NCBI RefSeq assembly: GCF_058153355.1
Contig: NZ_CM177019.1
Reading direction: 5' to 3' (one strand)
Length of the DNA stretch: 64,000 bases
Part shown: positions 15,828 to 63,100 of the stretch, piece by piece
Position numbering within the stretch: position 1 is the stretch's first letter
Layout: every line of letters starts with the position of its first letter
Position numbers and translations under genes: made by a program
Notes under the pieces: model-generated
What the model saw: only the letters and a program-made list of their open reading frames with translations
Databases searched by the model: none
Told to the model about the DNA's origin: nothing

Positions 15828-15904
15828 GGCTACGTAGCTCAGTTGGTTAGAGCACATCACTCATAATGATGGGGTCACAGGTTCGAATCCCGTCGTAGCC
15901 ACCA
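15828..15904 (+). tRNA. metT: tRNA-Met (elongator, anticodon CAU)
   Basis: GGCTACGTAGCTCAGTTGGTTAGAGCACATCACTCATAATGATGGGG...GTAGCCACCA; CAT in anticodon loop, CCA end. Confidence 0.95.
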
Positions 15905-15912
15905 TCTTTTTT

Positions 15913-15997
15913 GCGGGAGTGGCGAAATTGGTAGACGCACCAGATTTAGGTTCTGGCGCCGCAAGGTGTGCGAGTTCAAGTCTCGCCTCCCGCACCA
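15913..15997 (+). tRNA. leuW: tRNA-Leu (anticodon UAG)
   Basis: GCGGGAGTGGCGAAATTGGTAGACGCACCAGATTTAGGTTCTGG...CCCGCACCA; long variable arm. Confidence 0.95.
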
Positions 15998-16020
15998 TTC
16001 ACCAGAAAGCGTTGTACGGA

Positions 16021-16095
16021 TGGGGTATCGCCAAGCGGTAAGGCACCGGTTTTTGATACCGGCATTCCCTGGTTCGAATCCAGGTACCCCAGCCA
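16021..16095 (+). tRNA. glnU: tRNA-Gln (anticodon UUG)
   Basis: TGGGGTATCGCCAAGCGGTAAGGCACCGGTTTTTGATACCGG...CCCCAGCCA. Confidence 0.95.
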
Positions 16096-16129
16096 TCTTC
16101 TTCGAATAAGCGGTTCACCGCCCGGTTAT

Positions 16130-16204
16130 TGGGGTATCGCCAAGCGGTAAGGCACCGGTTTTTGATACCGGCATTCCCTGGTTCGAATCCAGGTACCCCA
16201 GCCA
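16130..16204 (+). tRNA. glnW: tRNA-Gln (anticodon UUG), second copy
   Basis: Identical to the preceding tRNA-Gln(UUG). Confidence 0.95.
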
Positions 16205-16219
16205 TCGAAGAAACAATCT

Positions 16220-16296
16220 GGCTACGTAGCTCAGTTGGTTAGAGCACATCACTCATAATGATGGGGTCACAGGTTCGAATCCCGTCGTAGCCACCA
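16220..16296 (+). tRNA. metU: tRNA-Met (elongator, anticodon CAU), second copy
   Basis: Identical to the copy at 15828-15904. Confidence 0.95.
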
Positions 16297-16344
16297 AATT
16301 CTGAATGTGTCGAATGCGTTCGGCAAATTCACAAACCAATTTGT

Positions 16345-16419
16345 TGGGGTATCGCCAAGCGGTAAGGCACCGGATTCTGATTCCGGCATTCCGAGGTTCG
16401 AATCCTCGTACCCCAGCCA
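16345..16419 (+). tRNA. glnV: tRNA-Gln (anticodon CUG)
   Basis: TGGGGTATCGCCAAGCGGTAAGGCACCGGATTCTGATTCCGG...; anticodon is wild-type CUG, not the CUA of supE. Confidence 0.95.
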
Positions 16420-16456
16420 ATTTATTCAAGACGCTTATATTGTAAGTGCACCCAGT

Positions 16457-16531
16457 TGGGGTATCGCCAAGCGGTAAGGCACCGGATTCTGATTCCGGCA
16501 TTCCGAGGTTCGAATCCTCGTACCCCAGCCA
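16457..16531 (+). tRNA. glnX: tRNA-Gln (anticodon CUG), second copy
   Basis: Identical to the copy at 16345-16419. Confidence 0.95.
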
Positions 16532-26081: not shown

Positions 26082-26990
26082 ATGCAATTACGTAAACCTG
26101 CCACAGCAATCCTGGCCCTGGCGCTTTCCGCAGGACTGGCACAGGCAGATGACGCCGCCCCGGCAGCAGGCAGTACGCTGGACAAAATCGCCAAAAACGG
26201 TGTGATTGTCGTCGGTCACCGTGAATCTTCAGTACCTTTCTCTTATTACGACAATCAGCAAAAAGTGGTGGGTTACTCGCAGGATTACTCCAACGCCATT
26301 GTTGAAGCAGTGAAAAAGAAACTCAACAAACCGGACTTGCAGGTGAAATTGATTCCGATCACCTCACAAAACCGTATTCCGCTGCTGCAAAACGGCACTT
26401 TCGATTTTGAATGTGGTTCTACCACCAACAACGTCGAACGCCAGAAACAGGCGGCTTTCTCCGACACTATTTTCGTGGTCGGTACGCGCCTGCTGACAAA
26501 AAAAGGCGGCGATATTAAAGATTTTGCCGATCTGAAAGACAAAGCCGTCGTAGTCACTTCCGGCACCACCTCTGAAGTTTTGCTCAACAAACTGAATGAA
26601 GAGCAAAAAATGAACATGCGCATCATCAGCGCCAAAGATCACGGTGACTCTTTCCGCACCCTGGAAAGCGGTCGTGCCGTTGCCTTTATGATGGATGACG
26701 CTCTGTTAGCCGGTGAGCGAGCGAAAGCGAAGAAACCAGACAACTGGGAAATCGTCGGCAAGCCGCAGTCTCAGGAAGCCTACGGTTGCATGTTGCGTAA
26801 AGACGATCCGCAGTTCAAAAAGCTGATGGATGACACTATCGCTCAGGTGCAGACCTCCGGTGAAGCGGAAAAATGGTTTGATAAGTGGTTCAAAAATCCA
26901 ATTCCGCCGAAAAACCTGAACATGAATTTCGAACTGTCGGACGAAATGAAAGCACTGTTCAAAGAACCGAATGACAAGGCACTGAACTAA
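26082..26990 (+). CDS. gltI: Glutamate/aspartate periplasmic binding protein GltI (302 aa)
   Basis: ATG at 26082 after AAGGAG gives MQLRKPATAILALALSAGLAQA signal peptide; correct length. Confidence 0.95.
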   Translation: MQLRKPATAILALALSAGLAQADDAAPAAGSTLDKIAKNGVIVVGHRESSVPFSYYDNQQKVVGYSQDYSNAIVEAVKKKLNKPDLQVKLIPITSQNRIPLLQNGTFDFECGSTTNNVERQKQAAFSDTIFVVGTRLLTKKGGDIKDFADLKDKAVVVTSGTTSEVLLNKLNEEQKMNMRIISAKDHGDSFRTLESGRAVAFMMDDALLAGERAKAKKPDNWEIVGKPQSQEAYGCMLRKDDPQFKKLMDDTIAQVQTSGEAEKWFDKWFKNPIPPKNLNMNFELSDEMKALFKEPNDKALN

Positions 26991-27146
26991 TTACAAGAAC
27001 CAGGGGCGGAAATTCCAGCCCTCTCGATTGTTACGTAGCACGGACAGACTATACGCCTGATGGTCGTTCCCCATCGGGCCTGAAAACCGCAATACGCTGG
27101 GTAACAATCTTCGAGGGTAGCAGTTAACGCTGCTACCCTTTTTTTT
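26991..27146 (+). ncRNA. sroC: SroC sRNA region (processed from the gltI-gltJ intergenic part of the gltIJKL mRNA)
   Basis: Location only: intergenic segment ending at the intrinsic terminator; SroC is known to derive from this position; sequence identity not verified from memory. Confidence 0.45.
27115..27146 (+). terminator. Intra-operon rho-independent terminator between gltI and gltJ
   Basis: GGGTAGCAGTTAACGCTGCTACCC hairpin followed by TTTTTTTT. Confidence 0.7.
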
Positions 27147-27159
27147 CTGGAGTAGATTT

Positions 27160-56337: not shown

Positions 56338-56367
56338 AAAAAAAACCCGCTGATTAAGCGGGTTTTG
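56338..56367. terminator. Bidirectional terminator between crcB and cspE
   Basis: AAAAAAACCCGCTGATTAAGCGGGTTTTGAATT. Confidence 0.7.
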
Positions 56368-56385
56368 AATTCTTGCTGACGTATC

Positions 56386-56595
56386 TTACAGAGCGATTAC
56401 GTTTGCAGCAGAAGGGCCTTTGGCACCGTTAGTGATTTCGAACTCTACGCGCTGACCTTCAGCAAGAGTTTTAAAACCATTAGTCTGGATTGCAGAGAAG
56501 TGTACGAACACGTCTTTGCTGCCGTCTTCCGGAGTAATGAAACCGAATCCTTTGGACTCATTAAACCACTTAACGTTACCTTTAATCTTAGACAT
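56386..56595 (-). CDS. cspE: Cold-shock-domain protein CspE (69 aa)
   Basis: [37 protein letters not shown]... (RNP1/RNP2 motifs). Confidence 0.95.
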
Positions 56596-56769
56596 CAAAA
56601 TTACCTTTACATGAAAAATAGACACAAATGCTGTGTCGGTTACCAGTACACCAATTGTGGTACGCTTTGTCCAGTGCAACTTTACTAAAAAGTGATAAAA
56701 GTCGCGTTATTTTTGATGTTAATTATTTTACTCATTGATTTTAAAGAAGTTACTAAAATTTCATTTGTC

Positions 56770-59313: not shown

Positions 59314-59340
59314 GCCGGAGGCAAGCTTCCTCCGGCTTTA
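59314..59340. terminator. Bidirectional terminator between dcuC and dpiA
   Basis: GCCGGAGGCAAGCTTCCTCCGGC hairpin followed by TTTATC. Confidence 0.55.
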
Positions 59341-59345
59341 TCATG

Positions 59346-60026
59346 TCACCCACTGTGGTATATGCGTTGCGGTCTGCCAACTTTGCCGTGAACAATTTCA
59401 GCAATAATCAGATGGCGGCTGGCGCAATATTCAAGATAACGTCTGGCAGTGGTGCGGCTGATAGTCAGTGCCTGCGCCACCGTTTCTGCCGTATGTTGCA
59501 CACCAGGCTCTTTAAACAGTTTTCGCACCGCGTTTAGCGTCAAGGGGTCAATGCCGGTCGGCAGTTCGTCTTTGGGTTCACCGCGAGCATAGGCATTAAA
59601 CATCTCATCGATTTGCTTCTGGCTGGCGCTATCAATACTTTCCAGCATATGTTTACGCTGGCGGAAACGGGTTAGCGTTTGCCCCAGCCGTTCATAGGCA
59701 ATTGGCTTAATGAGATAATCAAATACACCACAACGTACGGCTTCAGACACCGTTTCCATATCACTGGCTGCAGTGGTAAACACCACGTCGCCGGGATAAT
59801 GCGCCTGCACCAGTTCATGCAGTAAATTAATCCCTCTACCGTCAGGAAGATAGTTATCGAGCAAGATTAGCCCCGGCTTAAAACGCTCGATCATCATTCG
59901 GGCCTGCGCCAGGTTTCCCGCCAGTAATATCTGACTGAATCCGGGAATGTGACGAATATATTCCGCATGCATCTCTGCCAGCGGCGTTTCGTCCTCAACG
60001 ATCAATAGGGTTAATGGAGCTGTCAT
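59346..60026 (-). CDS. dpiA: DpiA/CitB response regulator (226 aa)
   Basis: Receiver domain (LIVEDETPLAEMH..., conserved Asp) plus C-terminal HTH. Confidence 0.92.
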   Translation of the reverse strand: MTAPLTLLIVEDETPLAEMHAEYIRHIPGFSQILLAGNLAQARMMIERFKPGLILLDNYLPDGRGINLLHELVQAHYPGDVVFTTAASDMETVSEAVRCGVFDYLIKPIAYERLGQTLTRFRQRKHMLESIDSASQKQIDEMFNAYARGEPKDELPTGIDPLTLNAVRKLFKEPGVQHTAETVAQALTISRTTARRYLEYCASRHLIIAEIVHGKVGRPQRIYHSG

Positions 60027-61653
60027 TAGGTTTCACTTTCGGAATATAGATTGAAAATAAGGTACCGCAGGGATCATTATCTTCGAGAGTGATAACACCA
60101 CCGCAGCGCGTTACGTAGCTGGCAATCAAGTACAACCCAATGCCATGTTCGCCGGGCTCGTCAGCACGCGTACTGACACCCTGCTCAAATATTTTGTCTC
60201 GTAGAGACTCTGGAACGCCGCAGCCCTGATCGGCGACTTCAATCACCACATCATCGCCTTCATCGCTGAGGAATAATTCAACGATCTTGTTTCCTTCATC
60301 GCTACGCAGGCTGGCTTCGAAGGCGTTATCAAGTAAATTGCCAATAATGGCTGCAAACTCGGTGCTGTCCAGTCCTGGCGGCAGTTGCGAAAGCTGACTT
60401 CCGGGGACGATGACCATTTTTAGCCCCAGTTCGCGGGCGCGCTGCACTTTACCAAAAAGCAGCCCCGCCACCTGGCGATCGGCAAACGCCTCGCGCAGGC
60501 TATCAATAAGCTGTTGCTGGGCCTGAGACTCCCCCTGCACCATCGCCAACACGCGATCATACTCTTTCATCTGCAACAGACCATTGAGCGTCGACATCCA
60601 ATTGAGATGCTCGTGTCGCAATGTGCGCAGGCTCTCGACGTATTGTTTAATTTGCGTCAGTTGTGCATTGAGGGTGGATATTTCGTCTTTACTACGAAAG
60701 CTGATAATGGCCCCCAGCAAATCATCACCAGAACGAATAGCTTCCCGGTTGGCAATAACGCTCAGACCGTTAAAGTTCGCCACCACATCCTGACGTTTTT
60801 CATCAATCTGTTCGGTAAAGAAATCGGCGGGCCTGACCACTTCAGCAATGGGTTTACCCAACCATTGCCGTCCGGGGGAACTTAGCCCCAGCATCTTTCT
60901 TGCGTTACGATTGATGGCGGTAATGTAACCGTGCGGATCCACCGCAATCAGCCCTTCATAAACCGAACTAAACAGCGCCTCTTGCTGACGGACCACGCGT
61001 GCGATTTGCTTTGGCTCCATGCCCATCATTTGCCGACGGATATGCGCGGCCAGGAACCACGACAGCAACATCAGAATCCCTAACAGCACGACAAACACGC
61101 CAGCCATCGGTAATAAAAACTCAGCCCGCCAGCTATCGATTTTACTCACCAGGTAGCCAATCGACACCACGCCGATGACTTTTCCATCGTCATCAAAGAT
61201 TGGCGTTTTGGCACGCATCGCCATGCCAATTGACCCTTTCCCGGTGATAAAGTAGCTCTCCCCTTTCTCCAGCGCGCCCGGTTTGGTGAACTGCATAGGA
61301 TAACCAATTTTCTCCGGATTAGGATGGTAAAGACGAATCGAGTGCCGATCGCCAATCACCACATAATCGAAATCAGTATCTCTTTGTAATTTGTCAGCGA
61401 TGGTCGCCAACCTCTTGTAGTCACGCGTTTTCACTGCGCTGATGATACTGTCATTAGAAGCAATAATTTTTGCCTGATTCATTGCCATGTCGCGCACATG
61501 AAGCGTTAAATAGTCCTCAAAACTGGCCGTAAAATATTGCGCCAGGGCTGCAATGACAAATATTGAGAACACCAGAATCAGCAAAAAGATACGCAGCGGA
61601 AATGCCAGTCTTTGGAAAAATGCAAACTGTTTATTCTCGTTAAGCTGCAACAT
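59995..61653 (-). CDS. dpiB: DpiB/CitA citrate-sensing histidine kinase (552 aa)
   Basis: ATG at 61653 after AAGGAAAAC gives MLQLNENKQFAFFQRL...; periplasmic PAS, H-box (LRHEHLNW) and HATPase; 3' end overlaps dpiA by 32 nt. Confidence 0.9.
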   Translation of the reverse strand: MLQLNENKQFAFFQRLAFPLRIFLLILVFSIFVIAALAQYFTASFEDYLTLHVRDMAMNQAKIIASNDSIISAVKTRDYKRLATIADKLQRDTDFDYVVIGDRHSIRLYHPNPEKIGYPMQFTKPGALEKGESYFITGKGSIGMAMRAKTPIFDDDGKVIGVVSIGYLVSKIDSWRAEFLLPMAGVFVVLLGILMLLSWFLAAHIRRQMMGMEPKQIARVVRQQEALFSSVYEGLIAVDPHGYITAINRNARKMLGLSSPGRQWLGKPIAEVVRPADFFTEQIDEKRQDVVANFNGLSVIANREAIRSGDDLLGAIISFRSKDEISTLNAQLTQIKQYVESLRTLRHEHLNWMSTLNGLLQMKEYDRVLAMVQGESQAQQQLIDSLREAFADRQVAGLLFGKVQRARELGLKMVIVPGSQLSQLPPGLDSTEFAAIIGNLLDNAFEASLRSDEGNKIVELFLSDEGDDVVIEVADQGCGVPESLRDKIFEQGVSTRADEPGEHGIGLYLIASYVTRCGGVITLEDNDPCGTLFSIYIPKVKPNDSSINPIDR

Positions 61654-61754
61654 TGTTTTCCTTGCGGGTTGTCCCGAGCCTCTTTGACGGATGTAATTAA
61701 AATGTTGAATCAAAATACATAGATATTAAATATAATCGTGGCAAATTTTATTCA

Positions 61755-61787
61755 TTAAATCAATTAAATCAATTAAATCACTTAAAC
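61755..61787. repeat. Tandem AT-rich decamer repeats in the dpiB-citC control region
   Basis: TTAAATCAATTAAATCAATTAAATCACTTAAA, about three copies of TTAAATCAAT. Confidence 0.5.
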
Positions 61788-62041
61788 CTGCGGGTCATTT
61801 CGTAATTACATTAATTAAAAAACTTAAAACCATTAAATAAATAAAAAACCACTAACTCTATGTGAAATAAATCAAAATTTCACGCTGCAATACTCCTTAG
61901 GATGTATAGCGAAAGGAGAAAAAGATATACCTCGATCGCCCCCCTTTCTCCCAAGTGAAAATAAAAGGTTATCAATTTGCAACATCGAACAACATTCGTT
62001 GCAAATCGATAACAACATGCACCTTCAGGATACTATTTATT

Positions 62042-63100
62042 ATGTTCGGCAATGATATTTTCACCCGTGTAAAACGTTCAGAAAATAAAAAAATGGCGGA
62101 AATCGCCCAATTCCTGCATGAAAATGATTTGAGCGTTGACACCACAGTCGAAGTATTTATTACCGTAACCCGCGATGAAAAGCTTATCGCGTGCGGTGGA
62201 ATTGCCGGAAATATTATTAAATGCGTTGCTATCAGTGAATCCGTTCGCGGTGAAGGACTGGCGCTGACATTAGCCACTGAATTGATAAACCTCGCCTATG
62301 AGCGGCACAGCACGCATCTGTTTATTTATACCAAAACCGAATACGAGGCGCTGTTCCGCCAGTGCGGTTTTTCCACGCTGACCAGTGTACCCGGCGTGAT
62401 GGTGCTGATGGAAAACAGCGCCACGCGACTGAAACGCTATGCCGAATCGCTGAAAAAATTTCGTCATCCAGGGAACAAGATTGGCTGCATTGTGATGAAC
62501 GCCAATCCCTTTACGAATGGTCACCGTTATCTGATTCAACAGGCTGCAGCACAGTGCGACTGGTTGCACCTGTTTTTAGTTAAAGAAGATTCTTCACGCT
62601 TTCCCTATGAAGACCGGCTGGATCTGGTGTTAAAAGGCACCGCCGATATTCCACGCCTGACTGTGCATCGCGGCTCCGAATACATCATCTCCCGCGCTAC
62701 GTTCCCTTGCTACTTCATTAAAGAACAGAGCGTCATTAACCATTGTTACACCGAAATTGATCTGAAGATTTTCCGTCAGTACCTCGCTCCCGCGCTGGGT
62801 GTAACTCACCGCTTTGTCGGTACTGAACCCTTTTGTCGCGTTACCGCCCAGTACAACCAGGATATGCGCTACTGGCTGGAAACGCCGACTATCTCCGCAC
62901 CGCCCATCGAACTGGTTGAAATTGAGCGGCTGCGTTACCAGGAGATGCCGATATCCGCTTCCCGGGTACGTCAACTGCTGGCGAAAAACGATCTCACGGC
63001 TATCGCGCCGCTGGTCCCTGCAGTCACGCTGCATTATTTGCAGAACCTGCTTGAGCACTCCCGCCAGGACGCGGCAGCTCGTCAAAAGACCCCCGCATGA
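62042..63100 (+). CDS. citC: [Citrate (pro-3S)-lyase] ligase CitC (352 aa)
   Basis: MFGNDIFTRVKRSENKKMAEIAQFLHENDL... from ATG at 62042; GNAT-like N-terminus and nucleotidyltransferase region. Confidence 0.9.
   Translation: MFGNDIFTRVKRSENKKMAEIAQFLHENDLSVDTTVEVFITVTRDEKLIACGGIAGNIIKCVAISESVRGEGLALTLATELINLAYERHSTHLFIYTKTEYEALFRQCGFSTLTSVPGVMVLMENSATRLKRYAESLKKFRHPGNKIGCIVMNANPFTNGHRYLIQQAAAQCDWLHLFLVKEDSSRFPYEDRLDLVLKGTADIPRLTVHRGSEYIISRATFPCYFIKEQSVINHCYTEIDLKIFRQYLAPALGVTHRFVGTEPFCRVTAQYNQDMRYWLETPTISAPPIELVEIERLRYQEMPISASRVRQLLAKNDLTAIAPLVPAVTLHYLQNLLEHSRQDAAARQKTPA

Follow-up and report, generated by a model that had tools for sequence, protein, structure and literature searches.

The junction of dpiB and dpiA, the citrate-sensing kinase and regulator genes of E. 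coli, raises the question of whether a 32-nt gene overlap says anything about how the downstream gene is translated. The window, the whole 64,000-nt stretch of DNA analysed here (contig NZ_CM177019.1 of RefSeq assembly GCF_058153355.1), carries both genes on its minus strand. dpiB (citA), coding for a sensor histidine kinase of 552 aa, lies at 59995..61653 with its annotated ATG at 61653 (RefSeq and Pfam), and dpiA (citB), coding for a response regulator of 226 aa, lies at 59346..60026 (Pfam, and DpiA-named proteins that are 100 % identical). The out-of-frame overlap spans 59995..60026, and since 32 mod 3 = 2 the two reading frames differ. Read on the minus strand, dpiB ends ...CCG AAA GTG AAA CCT AAT GAC AGC TCC ATT AAC CCT ATT GAT CGT TGA and dpiA begins ATG ACA GCT CCA TTA ACC CTA TTG ATC GTT GAG GAC...; the dpiA ATG (60026-60024) is the first start codon in its frame, and the dpiB stop codon TGA (59997-59995) is made up of the third base of the dpiA Val10 codon (GTT) and the first two bases of that for Glu11 (GAG). 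The program-made list of open reading frames extends dpiB by 20 codons (61654-61713) to a TTG at 61713, giving 572 aa. Pfam finds sCache_3_2, PAS and HATPase_c domains in DpiB, where HATPase_c stops at residue 539 of the 552, and Response_reg (residues 8-117) and HTH_64 (residues 162-226) in DpiA. This combination of a Cache/PAS/HATPase_c kinase with a receiver and a DpiA-type HTH places the pair among the DpiB/DpiA (CitA/CitB) two-component systems of the Enterobacteriaceae, as does the position of the genes, which are divergent from citC, adjoin dcuC and are near-identical to annotated dpiBA. Induction of dpiBA takes place during anaerobic growth with citrate.

The overlap itself is a matter of record. 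In the RefSeq annotation of K-12 MG1655, dpiB (652235..653893) and dpiA (653862..654542; b0619/b0620) overlap by the identical 32 nt, as do the two genes in the RefSeq annotation of the closest complete genome, and the supplement to Huber et al. (2023; PMC10666635) has the entry 'b0619 dpiB / b0620 dpiA: -32'. The window region is matched in 5420 of 5426 complete E. coli genomes, with query coverage of at least 80 %, identity of at least 90 % and loci annotated dpiB/dpiA in 5412, and the 126-nt dpiB/dpiA junction is found in 5416 of the 5426, at 99 % identity or more in 5099. Set beside K-12 dpiB-dpiA (citA-citB), the window has equal genes, equal neighbours (citC upstream, dcuC downstream), the same 32-nt overlap and a junction at 99 % identity or above in which we see no difference at all; where the window strain departs is between citC and dpiB, with one more copy of a 9-bp repeat that has no bearing on the overlap. 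What a sequence-only reading of this DNA gave for the identity of the two genes, their coordinates, their difference of frame and the length of the overlap is therefore all borne out by the sequence and by RefSeq K-12, and the comparison with the annotated dpiA start that it proposed returns the same start. This feature of the citrate-sensing two-component operon of E. coli, its dpiB-dpiA junction, is annotated and already known; nothing at it is new in kind, and the detail added here is mechanistic book-keeping. Since both the reference annotation and a published tabulation of gene spacings in E. coli already contain it, the overlap has little importance beyond correct annotation, although it has a modest teaching value as a natural example of a long 3n+2 overlap frozen by a stop codon within a downstream motif and by an N-terminus that forbids earlier stops.

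The length of the overlap can be accounted for from its anatomy. On the dpiA side it covers codons 1-10 and two nt of codon 11 (Met1 to Val10 and the start of Glu11), comprising a short N-terminal lead and strand beta-1 of the receiver domain; on the dpiB side it begins in codon 543 and consists of two nt of an Asn codon, the last nine codons and the stop, all of it tail lying beyond HATPase_c. The phase of the dpiB frame is that of 3n+2 overlaps and, with no dpiB stop ahead of the dpiA start or level with it, dpiB continues to the first one available. For a stop to arise in the dpiB frame, a dpiA codon whose third base is T must be followed by one that opens with AA, AG or GA, and residues 2-10 of E. 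coli DpiA (T-A-P-L-T-L-L-I-V) have no codons that permit this, whatever the synonymous choice; 32 nt is thus the shortest overlap possible without an amino-acid change in DpiA. The stop that does occur is embedded in the V10-E11 codons (GTT GAR) of the LIVEDE motif, at the beginning of the conserved receiver motif. Frame phase and the composition of the DpiA N-terminus together fix the length at 32 nt. After loss of a stop near the start, a nine-codon stop-free run in another frame has a chance of about 2/3 ((61/64)^9), and because such a run is expected by chance about two times in three, the length is unremarkable in itself; the overlap is a structural fact and not a statistical signal.

Comparison across genera indicates which of the two frames is under constraint. 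Loci recovered through DpiA homologues have the -32 overlap in Salmonella enterica, Citrobacter freundii, Atlantibacter hermannii, Buttiauxella and Erwinia sp. JUb26, an overlap of 8 nt in Providencia, and no dpiB in Cedecea lapagei. We also scanned species-representative genomes with a DNA pattern requiring an ATG and GTN-GAR-GAY-GA, which is blind to junctions lacking that motif. It returned at least 120 stretches, and among the matches listed 48 scored as DpiA loci and 72 did not, nearly all of the latter coming from unrelated organisms, a lower specificity than was aimed for; with the motif required and the listing giving minima only, the counts are biased lower bounds. Spacing is -32 at 32 or more of the 48 listed loci (Escherichia coli, E. 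albertii, E. whittamii and other Escherichia, many Citrobacter, S. enterica diarizonae, Atlantibacter, Buttiauxella and Intestinirhabdus), and -35, or -32 if counted from the second ATG, at two at least (Pluralibacter sp. and Enterobacter sp. CC120223-11). Providencia accounts for at least eight loci at -8 and at least three at +1 or +2; at least two more, from S. enterica arizonae and Enterobacter sp. BIGb0383, have -4, and dpiB is deleted from at least one, that of strain RIT693, a relative of Cedecea. A change of state can be seen in S. enterica subsp. arizonae CCUG 6322T, where the A-run before the dpiA ATG is A9 and not the A8 of subsp. diarizonae: the dpiB frame shifts onto ATGA, -32 becomes -4 and the DpiB tail is gone. 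A slippery A8 tract is present in many Citrobacter and Salmonella and is absent from E. coli.

Every lineage with the -32 overlap has GTTGAR. Among 26 distinct junctions, residues 2-10 of DpiA share a mean pairwise identity of 0.74 and the last nine of DpiB one of 0.41, and synonymous changes in dpiA show up as amino-acid changes in the DpiB tail. With the DpiA N-terminus conserved and the DpiB tail not, selection acts on the dpiA frame, the DpiB tail being a dispensable passenger, as the lineages at -4, -8 and +1/+2 also imply; the ten or so extra DpiB residues past the ATPase domain drift freely and are missing from several lineages. The overlap is, on the evidence of these sequences, inherited by descent across genera. 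Elsewhere in the family the spacing is shorter: in the paralogues dcuS and dcuR the overlap is 4 nt, and the CitA@CitB COG pair has a median spacing in prokaryotes of -3.4 (quartiles -7.4 and -0.4, n = 423; supplement of Huber et al., 2023, PMC10666635), so that, the family usually standing at about -4, the long dpiBA overlap is a lineage-specific state. Two records from the comparison deserve comment in their own right. One titled Citrobacter freundii strain M-21 has a dpiBA junction and a DpiA similarity score of the Atlantibacter type, and could be a mislabelled assembly or reflect horizontal transfer; in Erwinia sp. JUb26 (locus 1207-2532) the called DpiB has 441 aa, against 552-554 elsewhere, and no PAS match, and either its start is mis-called or the kinase is shortened.

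The dpiA initiation region (60015-60045) lies wholly within dpiB. Its only SD-like element is the GUGA of an invariant GAAAGUGAA (60040-60032), which pairs with UCAC of 16S rRNA; the DNA element, GAAAGTGAA (60032..60040, minus strand), is the same in all orthologous junctions and encodes part of DpiB P-K-V-K. It ends 5 nt ahead of the dpiA ATG in E. coli and 8 nt ahead of it in most other genera. The pairing is weak, at -3.9 kcal/mol, against a median of -3.2 for random positions in the window, 40 % of which reach -4.0 or lower, and against -11.3 for dcuR. Codon identity across CCG AAA GTG AAA is 0.71-1.0 against a background of 0.45, and we considered this raised synonymous-site conservation as independent evidence but set it aside, since it concerns four codons only, all of them common, and is not significant alone. 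Retention of the element where the kinase gene has gone is more telling. In Cedecea lapagei (LR134201.1, locus 1994-2501) and strain RIT693 nearly all of dpiB is deleted and an orphan dpiA adjoins citC, the remnants of dpiB being some 30-45 codons of its 5' end and its last 45 nt or so, including GAAAGTGAA, which both of these dpiB-deleted genomes keep following what is a single deletion event. This retention fits a role for GAAAGTGAA in dpiA initiation; it carries more weight than the codon identity, yet it is one event. The same two genomes may offer a natural test of a DpiA without its kinase, or another kinase may serve. A conserved upstream small ORF that might keep coupling alive in the dpiB-deleted Cedecea lineage was also considered and rejected, the 51-codon ORF of C. 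lapagei being interrupted in RIT693. Nor did a consensus scan lend credit to an internal dpiA promoter within dpiB: it gave three sites against 1.4 +/- 1.0 expected, and the sole minus-strand site lies about 320 nt upstream with a score of 9/12. At the other end of the transcription unit, a consensus scan places a GC-rich, terminator-like hairpin at 59314..59336 (plus strand) between the convergent dpiA and dcuC genes, its T-run scoring on the plus strand only, which is the dcuC side.

The explanation that we favour, and consider probable, is that translation of dpiA depends for the most part on weak de novo initiation, with minor re-initiation at most, and that the overlap is an inherited constraint and not a coupling device. 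It would have originated when an upstream dpiB stop was lost, making the overlap an inherited by-product, and it would since have been held in place by selection on the DpiA N-terminus and on the T of GTT, without being tuned for coupling. Ribosomes would bind dpiA inside dpiB and initiate weakly de novo on the conserved GAAAGUGAA together with an A-rich element, those terminating 29 nt downstream of the dpiA start contributing at most a small share by re-initiation. The junction has the characters of the long 'phase 1' (3n+2) stop-loss overlaps described by Huber et al. (2023, citing Cock and Whitworth, 2010): a 3n+2 length (32 = 3x10+2), a poorly conserved C-terminal extension of the upstream protein that belongs to no domain, and relatives with a short overlap or none and no tail (Providencia at -8 or without overlap, S. 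enterica arizonae and Enterobacter sp. BIGb0383 at -4, dcuSR, and the family median). As in that class there is no conversion to -4 or -1 without a frameshift. It differs in that the dpiBA stop lies inside the strongly conserved V-E of LIVEDE and in that the length is set by DpiA N-terminal composition, which would explain why the overlap is so stable across genera.

The sequence-only reading had gone further, taking the 32-nt overlap to imply tight translational coupling of kinase and regulator, and this part of it does not stand with the overlap facts. Re-initiation measured with reporters in E. coli stays about level between 0 and +25 nt; beyond -10 it drops from a plateau of 0.0072 by 0.0004 per nt, with an 11.6-fold lower value at -25, and overlaps of 25 nt or more are advised for preventing coupling (PMC4538824). 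A 2025 review likewise gives no coupling at -25 and notes that a longer overlap cuts coupling more than a longer spacing does, while recording that the coat-lysis pair of phage fr is coupled at -38 by backward scanning, that the distance rule rests on synthetic reporters, and that sequence context matters (PMC12548453). Termination-reinitiation pairs occupy a permissive window of -8 to +6 nt, typically with ATGA or TGATG, and long 3n+2 overlaps, which are in excess, are put down to the loss of a stop, with no way of shortening them to -4 or -1, 'typically without translational coupling' (Huber et al., 2023; PMC10666635). At -32, dpiBA lies outside the spacing of such pairs. With published re-initiation fading past -10 and nearly gone at -25, and no conserved structure that would hide the start, overlap does not by itself imply tight coupling, and the two should not be equated.

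Some coupling between dpiB and dpiA is possible, given the weak dpiA SD and the phage fr precedent at -38. The strong form of the idea, in which ribosomes ending dpiB at 59995 would return over 29 nt to begin again at the dpiA ATG, locking DpiA to DpiB synthesis, draws on the same two points and also on the coupling-type spacing of about -4 usual in the CitA/CitB family and on the retention of the overlap across genera. Surveys of E. coli protein synthesis generally show regulators to be produced in larger amounts than their kinases, an excess that a downstream gene fed only by inefficient re-initiation could not attain. Lineages at -4, -8 and +1/+2 show in addition that the -32 geometry is dispensable, and, with re-initiation 11.6-fold lower or absent by -25 and -32 well outside the permissive range, we judge tight positive coupling unlikely.

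A similar degree of doubt, or slightly more, attaches to coupling of the opposite sign, in which ribosomes elongating over the last 60 nt of dpiB would briefly cover the dpiA start, such that more translation of dpiB would mean less de novo initiation on dpiA. The whole of 60015-60045 does lie inside dpiB, and initiation there is apparently de novo and weak; kinase genes are usually poorly translated, however, so that ribosome occupancy would be low, and most published cases describe a positive effect of upstream translation (PMC12548453). Such occlusion is accordingly an improbable account of the junction.

There are nevertheless points against the explanation based on an inherited constraint. 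A weak SD is itself typical of coupling-dependent genes, and the persistence of -32 despite easy routes to a shorter overlap could hint at selection for a long overlap and not at neutrality: a single 1-nt indel leads to -4, and in Citrobacter and Salmonella one synonymous change at Thr2 (ACG/ACA to ACT) leads to -8. It might be that the geometry of 32 nt has been selected, along with the invariant GAAAGUGAA and the weak SD, as a 'translational attenuator': one that fixes DpiA as a small constant fraction of dpiB translation through inefficient backward re-initiation, on the model of phage fr coat-lysis, or one that insulates DpiA output from dpiB translation. We offer this as speculation of low probability; if true, it would account for -32 persisting in most Enterobacteriaceae though -4 and -8 are near at hand.

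Coupling through RNA unfolding is somewhat more doubtful again. Here the dpiA start would sit in a hairpin opened only by ribosomes at the dpiB end, as has been proposed for the MS2 coat-lysis overlap at -50. The minimum-energy fold of the E. coli junction does pair GAAAGUGA with UUAUUUUC about 20 nt upstream, and a ribosome terminating dpiB at -32 is estimated from typical footprints not to cover the dpiA start itself (the general point is made in PMC12548453). The single-sequence fold is no more stable than expected as a structure masking the ribosome-binding site, however (z = -0.37, with 68 of 200 shuffles folding equally well), and the GAAAGUGA/UUAUUUUC helix is absent from the eight-species consensus fold, which at -2.19 kcal/mol and with a positive (unfavourable) covariation term has no conserved helix over the dpiA start; a search of Rfam gave no family at the dpiB/dpiA junction. 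A stable, conserved structure sequestering the start, as in MS2, is thus not what we find. The coat-lysis overlaps of fr and MS2 (-38 and -50 nt) do resemble dpiBA in that the downstream gene starts, out of frame, a long way before the upstream one ends, and they are a precedent for coupling at a distance, but in the phage cases either independent initiation has been shown to be lacking, or RNA structure is involved, or both apply, and no such structure was detected at dpiBA. The dcuS-dcuR pair of E. coli is another comparison, with shared protein families and the same kinase-then-regulator order, but there the 4-nt overlap is an ATGA and the SD of dcuR is strong, whereas dpiBA has 32 nt and a weak dpiA SD.

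It remains to consider whether the overlap could be an artefact of a wrongly placed dpiA start. An in-frame TGA three codons 5' of the ATG (60035-60033) makes the ATG at 60026 the earliest possible start, and all seven orthologues found by protein homology, from seven genera, have an ATG at the equivalent position, their N-termini sharing the pattern M-x-x-x-x-x-(x)-LIVEDE. The Pfam receiver match on DpiA begins at residue 8, which is profile position 2, and the alignment with the closest solved receiver domain (5lwk) begins at residue 5-6. Annotated long gene overlaps do reflect start-codon errors in some cases, and two downstream codons, TTG codon 8 and ATG codon 19, are in frame. The TTG (60003..60005, minus strand) is the sole alternative upstream of the acidic pair E11-D12, and ATG codon 19 is the first start that would abolish the overlap. 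A start further downstream is nonetheless very improbable, as the ATG is kept at the same position in all the protein-homology orthologues, the TTG has SD pairing of just -0.6 kcal/mol, is CTG, TTA or CTC in other genera and would still leave an 11-nt overlap, and codon 19 would remove strand beta-1 and E11-D12 of the receiver. The case that the sequence-only reading had named as fatal to its overlap, a true dpiA start downstream with no overlap, is accordingly not supported, codon 19 being a start that would destroy a functional receiver domain. Near-cognate starts were ruled out on domain integrity, SD strength and conservation, and no downstream in-frame start combines a better ribosome-binding site with an intact domain and conservation. 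From Met1 (60026) the predicted N-terminal peptide of DpiA is (M)TAPLTLLIVEDETPLAEMHAEYIR; a literature search for published ribosome-profiling, start-site mapping or N-terminal protein data on dpiA found none.

The junction calls for care when dpiB is engineered. Within roughly the last 45 nt of dpiB lie the dpiA start region and the first ten dpiA codons, and dpiB deletions or C-terminal tags will therefore disturb DpiA expression.

Several observations elsewhere in the window are recorded here for completeness. The citC-dpiB intergenic region has three tandem copies of TGATTTAAT (61754-61780, minus strand) against two in K-12 MG1655 and in the best-matching genome, and the additional copy explains why all the top BLAST hits differ from the window by 9 nt in length; these repeats sit in the divergent cit/dpi control region. 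The neighbouring citC region (61955-63100 here) is reportedly the site of a young overlapping gene, nog1, said to have been described as antisense within citC in E. coli O157:H7. Rfam matches unrelated to the overlap are a cspA-type thermoregulator over the cspE gene region beside pagP (56338-56751, minus strand), the sRNA sroC (26986-27148, plus strand) and a cluster of seven tRNA genes (15828-16528, plus strand).
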